This document shows positions 34,842 through 34,962 of a stretch of DNA of 64,000 bases, piece by piece. The notes below the pieces were generated by a model, which ran no database searches, was not told the origin of the DNA, and was given only the letters and a program-made list of their open reading frames with translations. A program made the translations under genes and the position numbers. Each line of letters begins with the position of its first letter. Positions within the stretch are counted from its first letter, which is position 1. This DNA is from an uncultured Flavobacteriales bacterium (GTDB lineage: Bacteria > Bacteroidota > Bacteroidia > Flavobacteriales_D > JABDKJ01). The stretch covers positions 16,394-80,393 of the forward strand of contig CAZSQZ010000009.1 of assembly GCA_964609215.1 (NCBI GenBank). The letters are read 5' to 3'.

Positions 34842-34962
34842 TTTGGGAAGTAGGATTATCTCACGTTTGAATTAATCCTAAATGATGTTCGTGAATGCAA
34901 AGCATTTCGAACCTACGACCTCCCGCGTCCAAGGCAGGTAAACAACCACCGTTATCTTCCAA
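34842..34962 (-). ncRNA. tRNA-Pro(UGG)-like gene with a ~50-nt insertion inside the T-loop
   Basis: TTGGAAG…CCTGC-CTTGGAC-GCGGG/AGGTC/GTAGG-TTCGAA[50 nt]T-CCTAC/TTCCCAA. The T-stem 3' strand and the acceptor 3' strand reappear only after the insert (34856-34905). The insert has its own hairpins AATGC-ttt-GCATT and TAGGATTA-14 nt-TAATCCTA. Confidence 0.45.

Follow-up and report, generated by a model that had tools for sequence, protein, structure and literature searches.

Can a bacterial tRNA gene that is interrupted within its T-loop still give rise to a tRNA, or is it simply a gene that has been destroyed? To our knowledge, bacterial tRNA genes are regarded as uninterrupted, save for rare self-splicing introns in the anticodon loop. 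The question is raised by a 64-kb stretch of DNA from an uncultured Flavobacteriales bacterium (hereafter the window, i.e., all 64,000 nucleotides that were analysed). The window is part of a Bacteroidota chromosome, as judged by its type IX secretion system (T9SS) sorting domains and by its genes for a TonB-dependent receptor, Rho, a Mur ligase, Ddl, and UvrA. It contains an array of accessory tRNA genes in which a tRNA-Pro(UGG) gene carries 50 additional nucleotides (nt) in its T-loop. An earlier note on this DNA had compared the interruption to archaeal introns at position 59/60 and had found such a topology unexpected next to RtcB and a second ligase in a bacterium. The neighbourhood is as described there: an Rnl-type ligase is encoded 0.6 kb and RtcB 3.7 kb away, on a Bacteroidota chromosome. 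The explanation favoured here, to which we give about an even chance of being right, is that the Pro gene has suffered a young, inactivating insertion at the DNA level and is a pseudogene in a fast-eroding array of spare tRNAs rather than an archaeal-type intron-containing gene.

The interrupted gene, its orthologs and the question of an intron

The interrupted tRNA-Pro(UGG) gene lies on the minus strand at positions 34842..34963 (122 nt including A73), where it fills part of the 190-nt gap between tRNA-Gln (34764-34835) and tRNA-Tyr (35028-35111). Its 5′ part, comprising tRNA positions 1-57, is contiguous (34908..34963, minus strand, with C1 at 34963 and G57 at 34908). The acceptor 5′ strand—C1 followed by TTGGAA—is succeeded by G AT, by a D arm AACG-GTGGT-TGTT consisting of a 4-bp stem (AACG/TGTT) and a 5-nt loop, and by TA. 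The anticodon arm CCTGC-CTTGGAC-GCGGG with the anticodon TGG, the variable loop AGGTC, the T-stem 5′ strand GTAGG, and the TTCG that ends at G57 complete this part. Fifty extra bases separate this TTCG from AAT-CCTAC. The 3′ part (34842..34857, minus strand) is made up of the AAT of the T-loop, the T-stem 3′ strand CCTAC (34854-34850), the acceptor 3′ strand TTCCCAA (34849-34843), and A73 (34842). The insert, AAATGCTTTGCATTCACGAACATCATTTAGGATTAATTCAAACGTGAGAT, is written here as following G57 (34858..34907, minus strand). Since it starts with AA(A) and is itself followed by AAT, it can equally be placed after A58 or at 59/60, the latter corresponding to 34856-34905. All sequence details given in the earlier note for a tRNA-Pro(UGG)-like gene with a T-loop interruption of about 50 nt are thus present, on the minus strand and with an insert of exactly 50 nt.

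Neither ARAGORN nor Rfam (RF00005) calls a tRNA in the contiguous sequence 34842-34963, even at E≤10. Once the insert has been deleted in silico, ARAGORN reports a tRNA-Pro(tgg) of 72 nt with a 7-nt anticodon loop that includes U33, the anticodon UGG, a 5-bp T stem, a TTCGAAT loop, and a 7-bp acceptor stem. In the register of the family, the acceptor stem of this insert-free version contains two non-pairs, C1.A72 and T3.C70. The significance of the call was assessed by a deletion scan in which, at each GTTCR/GCTCR motif on both strands, 8-130 or 8-160 nt were removed after position 57 and an ARAGORN tRNA spanning the deletion junction was scored as a hit. The scan covered the 64-kb window together with nine loci (124,858 variants), 909 kb of related loci (742,697 variants), and 760 kb of viral contigs (717,089 variants), amounting to some 1.58 million variants including the window, with about 1.7 Mb of other DNA. 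Outside intact tRNAs, it yielded four genuine hits: the window Pro gene, a Cys and a Phe gene in the related locus L050, and a Ser(GCU) gene in the related locus L146. The deletion lengths that worked were narrowly defined, namely 50 nt only for window Pro, 26-30 nt for L050 Cys and Phe, and 78-82 nt for L146 Ser(GCU). Four distinct spurious hits (five if L183, the same contig as L031, is counted) were dismissed: L031/L183 2339 is GC-rich coding sequence, L175 is a tandem repeat, the 3′ half of L209 4961 lies inside ligase coding sequence, and a plus-strand hit at window position 7956 appeared with a single deletion length and outside any tRNA context. As the scan is nearly free of false positives, the Pro signal is far beyond chance. 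The interrupted tRNA-Pro(UGG) gene is genuine, and the whole gap sequence recurs identically in a second assembly (L049, Logan SRR5078291).

The history of the insert becomes apparent by comparison with five related arrays, anchored on the ligase and on the nucleotidyltransferase RlaP (L050/L051, L142, L143, L145, and L146). The closest, L050/L051, is fully syntenic with the window, its RlaP and ligase being 85% and 88% identical to those of the window, and its array is complete. L142 (RlaP 66% identical) harbors 12 intact tRNAs, the arrays of L143 (66%) and L146 (65%) are partial, and L145 (64%) contains the first gene only. An uninterrupted tRNA-Pro(UGG) occupies the same array position in L050 (3259-3331), L142 (7148-7220), and L143 (7313-7386). 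Alignments of the window with these three orthologs show an exact 50-nt gap in the T-loop, and both halves of the window gene are 89% identical to the L050 tRNA-Pro. Because the orthologs are uninterrupted, the feature represents a lineage-specific insertion and not an ancient split gene; the insert is confined to the window lineage and has no evolutionary depth. The window gene also departs from its relatives at position 72, which is A in the window and G in all three orthologs, so that the C1-G72 pair common to the orthologs is broken. Both G72 and A73 are identity elements for prolyl-tRNA synthetase in E. coli. The structural marks of a pseudogene are thus found together in window Pro: intact relatives at the same position, and lesions that comprise the 50-nt insert, G72A, and a predicted loss of the T arm. 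The L050 array also contains a tRNA with the anticodon UUA (3655-3728; ochre-suppressor type, termed 'tRNA-Stop' by ARAGORN), a gene that is missing altogether from the window array.

The predicted loss of the T arm follows from the minimum free energy (MFE) fold of the unspliced Pro RNA, which keeps the acceptor, D, and anticodon arms and forms two additional hairpins. In hairpin 1, GTTCG-A-AATGC-TTT-GCATT-CA-CGAAC (34887..34912, minus strand), the first 21 nt of the insert and exon positions G53-G57 constitute a near-perfect inverted repeat (GTTCG-A-AATGC / GCATT-CA-CGAAC). The insert here holds an inverted copy of the 5′ half of the T-loop, by which TTCG is predicted to be sequestered. Hairpin 2, TAGGATTA/TAATCCTA (8 bp; 34851..34880, minus strand), pairs a later segment of the insert with an 8-nt stretch that includes the T-stem 3′ strand, and in this fold the T arm is replaced. 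The earlier note had both AATGC/GCATT and TAGGATTA/TAATCCTA form within the insert on its own; both helices are indeed part of the MFE structure, but the 8-bp helix reaches beyond the insert, as it uses the T-stem 3′ strand of the exon. The predicted pair probability of the T stem is below 0.001 in the unspliced RNA, and the fold compatible with a cloverleaf lies 13 kcal/mol above the MFE structure (−22.1 versus −35.4). Since the two halves of the insert pair with GTTCG and with the T-stem 3′ strand, the transcript would refold into two new hairpins, with loss of the T arm and the elbow.

Is the insert nevertheless an intron? Archaeal non-canonical bulge-helix-bulge (BHB) tRNA introns—e.g., those of Thermoproteales, at positions such as 59/60, the T-loop equivalent of 37/38—are thought to transpose between tRNA genes; they are reviewed in PMC4090602. 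The interrupted genes of the arrays resemble them in that inserts of tens of nucleotides reside in the T-loop or the anticodon loop, that related sequences occur in different tRNA genes, that presence and absence alternate among close relatives, and that RtcB is available. In contrast to the archaeal introns, they have a bacterial host and no BHB or EndA could be found for them; one copy is inverted, related elements also occupy spacers, further lesions are common, and the Pro insert is without relatives. The motif was sought as an outer helix, a 4-bp helix, and two 3-nt bulges, with the cut after the second bulge nucleotide, a geometry that predicts position 59/60 for the T arm. At the boundaries of the Pro insert, where the earlier note had proposed to look for it, no such motif was found. 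Neither hBHBh′ nor the relaxed HBh′ form was detected at any allowed junction or in an unrestricted search. The best candidate, at 59/60, forms two of the four pairs of the central helix and would have a 3′ 'bulge' of 36 nt. None of six other interrupted genes scored better than Pro in the same test. Moreover, the T stem would have to serve as the outer helix h of any BHB at this site, and it is predicted not to form.

Candidate enzymes and catalytic RNAs were equally elusive. EndA is not known from Bacteria, and no Pfam hit to EndA or other splicing-endonuclease families was obtained among 36 window proteins, which include 30 of the 49 largest open reading frames (ORFs). The proteins encoded around the array yield domain hits to RtcB, RlaP, RNA_ligase, Band_7, and WYL only, RtcB (38641-40026) being a ligase of the 3′-phosphate type. 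A protein of 239 amino acids (aa) encoded at 37962..38681 on the minus strand gives no hit in Pfam, NCBIfam, PADLOC, or PDB sequences. Its confident, all-alpha AlphaFold2 model (pLDDT, the model's own confidence score, 89.8) matches no PDB fold at E<0.1. Its 39 homologs, which are confined to Flavobacteriia-like genomes, share near-invariant C-x-C-C and K-H-F-L-P-R motifs. This protein was considered as a candidate endonuclease and rejected, given that it matches no nuclease and that other arrays have unrelated genes in its place; the islands compared do not share any candidate endonuclease. Rfam ribozyme and intron families have no match in 33800-35900 at E≤10, where tRNAs and noise alone were returned. 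With an insert of 50 nt and no Rfam match, a group I or group II self-splicing intron or a small ribozyme was rejected as well. Bacterial group I and II introns likewise interrupt tRNA genes, but the present insert is far too short and lies in the T-loop. In its intron mode (-i), ARAGORN reports anticodon-loop cases only, namely L050 Ser(UGA) and the b7a-like RNA described below. A full-text literature search brought up neither T-loop-interrupted bacterial tRNA genes nor the array elements considered in the next section. In view of the failed BHB, catalytic-RNA, endonuclease, and folding tests, an archaeal-type mechanism is unsupported. The proposal of an archaeal-type intron at 59/60 does not hold up against the absence of hBHBh′, the absence of an endonuclease family hit among the 36 window proteins scanned, the T stem predicted not to form, the restriction of the insert to one lineage, and the loss of G72.

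The insertion hot spot and its hairpin elements

The Pro gene is not the only interrupted member of its array, which comprises 14 accessory tRNA genes. Eight of these are called by both ARAGORN and Rfam and are uninterrupted (34243-35192, all on the minus strand): Cys (35120-35192), Tyr (35028-35111), Gln (34764-34835), Leu(UAG) (34685-34759), Leu(UAA) (34474-34548), His (34397-34469), Phe (34320-34393), and Arg(ACG) (34243-34315). Five of the 14 are missed by tRNA detectors, namely four interrupted genes and a truncated Asp remnant. Besides Pro, the interrupted genes are tRNA-Ser(UGA), tRNA-Ser(GCU), and tRNA-Glu(UUC), all on the minus strand. Ser(UGA) (35318..35455) carries a 51-nt insert in the anticodon loop (35369-35419) and, in the window, two adjacent anticodon-stem mismatches. 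Ser(GCU) (35199..35312) is interrupted after G57 by a 28-nt hairpin element, AACTCTGAGCGCAGCGATCTGCGCAGCA (35215-35242), and has a 1-nt deletion in the anticodon stem. Glu(UUC) (34560..34680) combines a 52-nt anticodon-loop insert (34596-34647) with a 3-nt deletion in the T-loop.

The distribution of these insertions differs from array to array. The Ser(UGA) insert is also found in L050, at 80% identity, while the gene is intact in L142 and L146 as well as, up to the insertion site, in L145, whose contig holds the 5′ part only; in L143, an anticodon-loop insert of about 52 nt is accompanied by a D-arm deletion. Ser(GCU) is intact in L050, L142, and L143. In L146, the same site of Ser(GCU) is occupied by an 80-nt insert, the second half of which consists of GGTTCG and a homologous 28-nt element. 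L050 Cys and L050 Phe each carry a 28-nt insert after G57. In L143, Tyr is disrupted, and an intact Cys is followed by a decayed, interrupted second Cys copy. Taken together, five genes in three arrays (window, L050, and L146) bear an insert directly after G57—Pro, Ser(GCU) twice, Cys, and Phe—and Ser(UGA) and Glu bear one in the anticodon loop. Between the window and L050, four of six intragenic insertions, in four different genes, fall at 57/58; the chance probability of such clustering is estimated at about 3e-5, and L146 adds a fifth case. The T-loop position after G57 is an insertion hot spot. Models in which this hot spot reflects a restriction site (TTCGAA) or a P-nucleotide footprint were discarded, as the junction sequences do not fit.

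Most of the inserted sequences are related to one another. The 28-nt inserts of the T-loop, those of 51/52 nt in the anticodon loop, and the insert of L146 have in common a motif of the approximate form YKAGYGMAG(G)CGA. Homology is clear between the Cys and Phe inserts of L050 (score 41 against a null maximum of 18), and the insert in window Glu matches that in Ser(UGA) as its reverse complement (score 32 in reverse and 17 in forward orientation, null maximum 21). The same motif forms the core of a 28-29-nt palindromic unit, GCTCGCCGAAGCTTTAGCGAAGGCGAGC, in ligase-linked arrays of Chryseolinea, the spacers of which contain the unit in tandem (L004, 7580-8330; L007, 7590-8400; L014, 7580-8370; L087, 5580-6250). 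In the opposite orientation, the Chryseolinea unit interrupts the anticodon loop of tRNA-His in L004 and L014; in this orientation it has also entered a second site (26/27) in L014 and the 5′ end of Ser(GCU) in both of these loci. Units of this kind were encountered within arrays only and nowhere else in the 64-kb window or in the flanks of about 10 kb per Chryseolinea locus. The 28-nt elements have no conserved helix register and hence lack covariation support for their hairpins. Orientation independence, the copies in spacers, and the missing helix register favour a process at the DNA level over an intron acting at the RNA level. A hammerhead-like reading of the 28-nt elements was rejected, as the core consensus is not attained and Rfam gives no hit. 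An exact-pattern scan of IMG/VR for the junction of the 28-nt element returned zero hits, and a BLAST search with the whole array against phage and plasmid collections revealed similarities to single tRNAs only.

The Pro insert shares the insertion site of this family but not its sequence and is an orphan in this respect. Compared with the other array inserts, its scores (8-16) stay under the 95th percentile obtained with shuffled sequences (13-18), and the YKAGYGMAG(G)CGA motif is absent from it. A 7-mer, GCAAAGC, common to the Pro and Ser(UGA) inserts is within chance expectation by estimate. The insert is single copy in the window and the loci L001-L144, which contain nothing similar elsewhere. 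It accordingly has none of the dispersed copies in these sequences that a repetitive extragenic palindromic (REP) sequence or a miniature inverted-repeat transposable element (MITE) would have, and its sole possible target-site duplication is the ambiguous AA. The family as a whole resembles REP and MITE repeats in its hairpin-forming units of 28-52 nt, in the use of both orientations, and in the tandem copies of the Chryseolinea spacers; unlike such repeats, it has copies inside tRNA arrays only, and the Pro insert lacks its motif. Integrases provide another comparison. Attachment (att) sites of tyrosine integrases in tRNA genes reportedly fall at T-loop and anticodon-loop sublocations, as Williams is said to have described in 2002 in Nucleic Acids Research (NAR). 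The same two sublocations are used here, and the intact Cys with a duplicated 3′ fragment in L143 resembles an att-like scar. In contrast to integrated elements, the inserts measure 28-80 bp and carry no integrase, and the 3′ part of the tRNA is not restored except in L143 Cys; a Pfam scan of 36 window proteins found no integrase.

Two further members of the array deserve mention. A tRNA-Asp(GUC) remnant of 54 nt (34971..35024, minus strand) keeps its acceptor and anticodon arms, has lost its T arm by deletion, and is not called by ARAGORN. It aligns with the intact tRNA-Asp of L142 and L143 and is common to the window and L050 at 89% identity, which implies either an unexpectedly slow decay or a minimal tRNA-like RNA. 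The tRNA-His of the array (34397-34469) is odd in all three arrays in which it was inspected, with a 3-bp T stem, an interrupted acceptor stem according to ARAGORN, and an Rfam score of 46.7 bits. Judging by its acceptor and T region, even 'intact' array tRNAs can be atypical.

Decay, constraint and the competing explanations

How might the Pro gene have come to its present state? Its T-loop received 50 bp, located between G57 and U60, in the window lineage only; according to the explanation favoured here, this happened at the DNA level and would disable the gene. The start of the insert, as an inverted copy of the 5′ half of the T-loop, would pair with GTTCG and the second half with the T-stem 3′ strand, and the loss of G72 would constitute a further lesion of this copy. 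More generally, the G57 site and the anticodon loop are hot spots that short hairpin-forming sequences have entered time and again in sister arrays. Most of these belong to the array-restricted YKAGYGMAG(G)CGA family, which occurs in either orientation, and interrupted copies would go on to gather more lesions until they are finally lost or replaced. The hot spot might be due to site-specific insertion of array-restricted hairpin elements into single-stranded T or anticodon hairpin loops. Alternatively, it might arise from template-switch extension of quasi-palindromes; the inverted T-loop copy with which the Pro insert begins would be in keeping with such a process.

A decaying state of the interrupted genes is suggested by their secondary lesions. 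Stem defects affect six of eight interrupted genes versus about 4 of 33 intact ones (Fisher p=0.001). After exact removal of the insert, five of the eight are called at default ARAGORN settings. Owing to its two anticodon-stem mismatches, window Ser(UGA) needs a relaxed ARAGORN threshold to be called, and window Ser(GCU) and Glu are not called as tRNAs unless the second lesion is repaired as well. L050 Cys exhibits G19A and a G7.A66 mismatch. The interrupted His copies of Chryseolinea are not recovered by ARAGORN after insert removal; their positions 8-9 read CG rather than TA, as judged by eye, and L004 also lacks one T-loop base. Dead members are not foreign to such arrays: accessory tRNA arrays hold non-expressed pseudogenes, and the trn operon of Anabaena is an array that is induced under translational stress together with rtcB (PMC8421152, PMC4758250). 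The array described here shares with arrays of the Anabaena type its dispensable and apparently conditional character, its functional tie to RtcB, the presence of some members that are probably dead, and a quick turnover of genes. It differs from them in being located physically inside an RtcB-RlaP-Rnl-Band-7 operon of a Bacteroidota and in its site-specific micro-insertions at T-loop position 57/58 and in the anticodon loop, which are not described in PMC8421152 or PMC4758250.

Several observations weigh against simple decay. Between the window and L050, exons interrupted in one lineage have accumulated 25 differences in 372 positions and genes intact in both lineages 29 in 452. When changes in Pro are polarised by means of L142 and L143, 3-4 fall on the window branch and 4-5 on that of L050, with G72A as the only damaging one. 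For Ser(UGA), the exons of the window and L050 have diverged by 6.9%, compared with 19.6% for the insert, 24% for the intergenic region upstream, and 30-38% for third codon positions. Six or fewer differences in 87 exon positions would be expected with a probability between 0.018 and 1e-7 according to the neutral rate assumed, the proxies for neutrality being rough. At least one interrupted gene has therefore been kept under constraint. Without their inserts, L050 Ser(UGA) and L050 Phe form cloverleaves free of stem non-pairs, and that of L146 Ser(GCU) is essentially intact, with a T49.T65 mismatch and two variable-arm non-pairs that are attributed to the alignment; compensatory changes are seen in the cloverleaves of all three. 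A TTCG(54-57)/CGAA helix in Pro, Cys, and Phe creates a loose bulge-helix-bulge-like topology with bulges of 6-36 nt. Finally, the co-encoded RtcB and Rnl, to which Tpt1 is added in L146, are exactly the enzymes suited to sealing excised exons. Either the insertions are all recent and turn over fast, or some of the interrupted genes are still useful, be it as spliced or as tRNA-like RNAs.

Of the alternatives to a DNA-level pseudogene, the most serious one holds that the inserts are bacterial intervening sequences without a BHB, cut out by some endonuclease—perhaps one active only under RNA-damage stress, or even an attacking ribotoxin—after which the halves would be joined by RtcB or Rnl into functional tRNAs, and that they spread like archaeal mini-introns. 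We consider this unlikely, yet it draws on much of the evidence just listed: interrupted genes match intact ones in the conservation of their exons, with those of Ser(UGA) under constraint, five of eight genes are called after exact removal, and in Pro, Cys, and Phe the junctions are flanked by pairing between TTCG and CGAA. To this may be added the recurrence of one and the same T-loop position in five genes from three arrays and the presence of RtcB, Rnl, and RlaP in the same operon, with Tpt1 or a CCA-adding-type enzyme in related loci. Homologous 28-nt elements at the same Ser(GCU) site in the window and the distant L146, but not in the close L050, form a pattern that resembles homing or precise loss. 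These points are countered by the want of any conserved junction structure or BHB, by the one element that is inverted relative to its tRNA, by the orphan status of the Pro insert outside the element family, and by the failure to find an endonuclease candidate conserved among the islands. The enrichment of second lesions in interrupted genes, the loss of G72 in window Pro, and the predicted misfolding of the Pro precursor are also difficult to reconcile with splicing. The broader proposition that the T-loop and anticodon-loop inserts of the arrays represent a new class of mobile, protein-dependent, non-BHB intervening sequences, joined after excision by RtcB or Rnl with Tpt1 in some islands, and that maturation of the spare tRNAs awaits activation of the repair system, strikes us as rather doubtful.

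Should the insert be retained instead, the 122-nt Pro RNA might act as a tRNA-like non-coding RNA (ncRNA), i.e., as a scaffold, decoy, or cofactor for the repair enzymes. The island offers parallels for such a role in a conserved tRNA-like RNA with a replacement of about 110 nt in its anticodon loop, 97.6% identical to its L050 counterpart, and in permuted modules, likewise tRNA-like, that show compensatory changes. In its MFE fold, the Pro RNA retains the acceptor, D, and anticodon arms, and a precedent is supplied by the b7a-tRNA and YrlA RNAs described beside RtcB/Band-7 (bioRxiv 10.1101/312249). Set against this, the Pro insert is unique in sequence and limited to one lineage, and its orthologs are ordinary tRNAs, so that we regard a retained, functional insert as quite improbable. 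An archaeal-type BHB intron at 59/60, cut by EndA and sealed by RtcB, would be compatible with one of the possible placements of the insert and with the nearby RtcB. Given a central helix of two in four pairs, a 36-nt 3′ 'bulge', no strict hBHBh′ candidate at an exon junction, the equal failure of the six other interrupted genes tested, and no EndA domain in the proteins scanned, it is hardly credible. An artefact, in the form of an assembly chimera or a chance likeness to tRNA halves, might be suspected on account of the metagenomic source; the identical sequence in the second assembly, the 89% identity of both halves to the L050 tRNA-Pro, and a deletion scan almost without false positives leave it with practically no weight.

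The interest of the locus does not depend on splicing. It lies mainly in the site specificity of the insertions, in the array-restricted element family, and in the residual chance of a bacterial protein-dependent tRNA splicing or repair-maturation. If the insertions are read as ordinary DNA-level events, they disclose a hitherto unrecognised family of elements specific to the arrays, along with a hot spot for insertion. They also show that tRNA detectors silently miss such interrupted genes, and they offer a way to date accessory tRNAs and to measure selection on them. If the inserts were removed at the RNA level, the arrays would represent the first protein-dependent tRNA splicing system in Bacteria and would provide a native substrate for bacterial RtcB, Rnl, and Tpt1, a long-standing question.

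The surrounding RNA-repair island

The array is embedded in an RNA-repair island in which a WYL gene, RtcB, the 239-aa protein, two RlaP proteins, a leader, the tRNA array, Rnl, about 1 kb of tRNA-like ncRNA, and a Band-7 gene follow one another. A regulator with WYL/WCX domains is encoded divergently on the plus strand (40091..41140), and all other members are found on the minus strand: RtcB (38641..40026), the 239-aa protein, the two RlaP nucleotidyltransferases (PF10127; 37204-37950 and 36137-37207), the ATP-dependent, Rnl2-like RNA ligase (PF09414; 33578..34225) immediately downstream of the array, and an SPFH/Band-7 protein (31451..32551) that closes the island. The longest ligase ORF (start at 34270) overlaps tRNA-Arg(ACG) (34243-34315). 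Since homologs measure 212 aa, the real start is likely to be the ATG at 34216 or the nearby position 34225, which would place the beginning of the ligase gene 18-27 nt past the last tRNA of the array. In place of the 239-aa protein, other arrays have unrelated genes, some of them for RNA-end processing, such as that for a CCA-adding-type PolyA_pol+HD enzyme in L143 (2894-4240); L145 and L146 encode a 208-aa protein of unknown kind. In L146, a Tpt1/KptA RNA 2′-phosphotransferase (5068-5601) directly precedes the array leader, and RF-1-domain and TPR proteins are encoded upstream of RtcB.

Directly upstream of the first array gene, on the minus strand, resides a leader composed of an ORF of 39 codons (35646-35527), a hairpin GCACCTC/GAGGTGC (35495-35477), and a T9 run (35476-35468). 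The position of the leader ORF and of the terminator-like hairpin is kept in all six arrays, whereas the peptide sequence is not conserved; the ORFs span 39-42 codons and end 20-30 nt before the hairpin (leader regions: L050, 2566-2740; L142, 6516-6700; L143, 6518-6700; L145, 5531-5710; L146, 6079-6260). The codons of the window leader cover nearly every tRNA of the array, namely TTA/CTG Leu, GAA Glu, CAT/CAC His, CAA Gln, TGT Cys, AGT/TCG Ser, CGA Arg, TTC Phe, TAT Tyr, and CCG Pro. The leader looks like a translation-coupled attenuator that would switch on the spare array when cognate tRNAs fail. The combination of leader ORF and terminator suggests that the array is expressed conditionally only.

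A non-coding stretch of about 370 nt in the interval between ligase and Band-7 (~33480-33110, minus strand) is 97.6% identical to L050, far above the identity of the coding genes. It contains a tRNA-like RNA recognised by ARAGORN -i (33193-33394), about 1.5 kb from the Pro gene, with an acceptor stem GTCTCTT/AAGAGAC and a D arm, a stretch of about 110 nt that replaces the anticodon loop, a T arm GTCGGTTCGAATCCGAC, and a subsequent 10-bp hairpin. Further tRNA-like modules with a permuted, YrlA-like topology lie at ~33000-32830 on the minus strand. In the first module, a T arm ACAGG-TTCGAGT-CCTGT is followed by a closed stem CTGTGC-TTGTG-GCACAG, for which L050 has CAGAAC/GTTCTG and thus several compensatory pairs. 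The second comprises GGTGG-TTCGATT-CCACC, a closed acceptor-like stem CCTA-TTGAGGT-TAGG, and a D-arm-like TAGCTCAGTT. According to bioRxiv 10.1101/312249 (citing Burroughs & Aravind 2016), b7a-tRNA and YrlA are encoded beside RtcB together with Band-7 or Ro proteins, and a tRNA-like RNA associated with RtcB/RlaP/Band-7 repair systems was predicted by Burroughs & Aravind. The RNA at ~33480-33110 is probably this predicted 'b7a-tRNA'. Like the interrupted Pro gene, the b7a-tRNA and YrlA RNAs are tRNA-derived, with large inserted or permuted modules, and belong to the same type of island; they differ from it in being conserved as such, whereas the Pro insert is absent from L050, L142, and L143.

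The ligase itself was followed beyond the related arrays in a ligase-anchored collection of 47 genomes, 80 metagenome contigs, and 80 viral contigs. In the phage-context loci of this collection, the deletion scan detected no true T-loop-interrupted tRNA. The closest homologs of the ligase (78-83% identity; L052, L135-L141, and L148-L227) reside mostly in phage-like contigs without a tRNA array, next to genes for portal proteins, N6_N4 methyltransferases, Cpn60/Cpn10, and integrases. The ligase has therefore apparently been exchanged between Bacteroidota phages and the chromosomal island.

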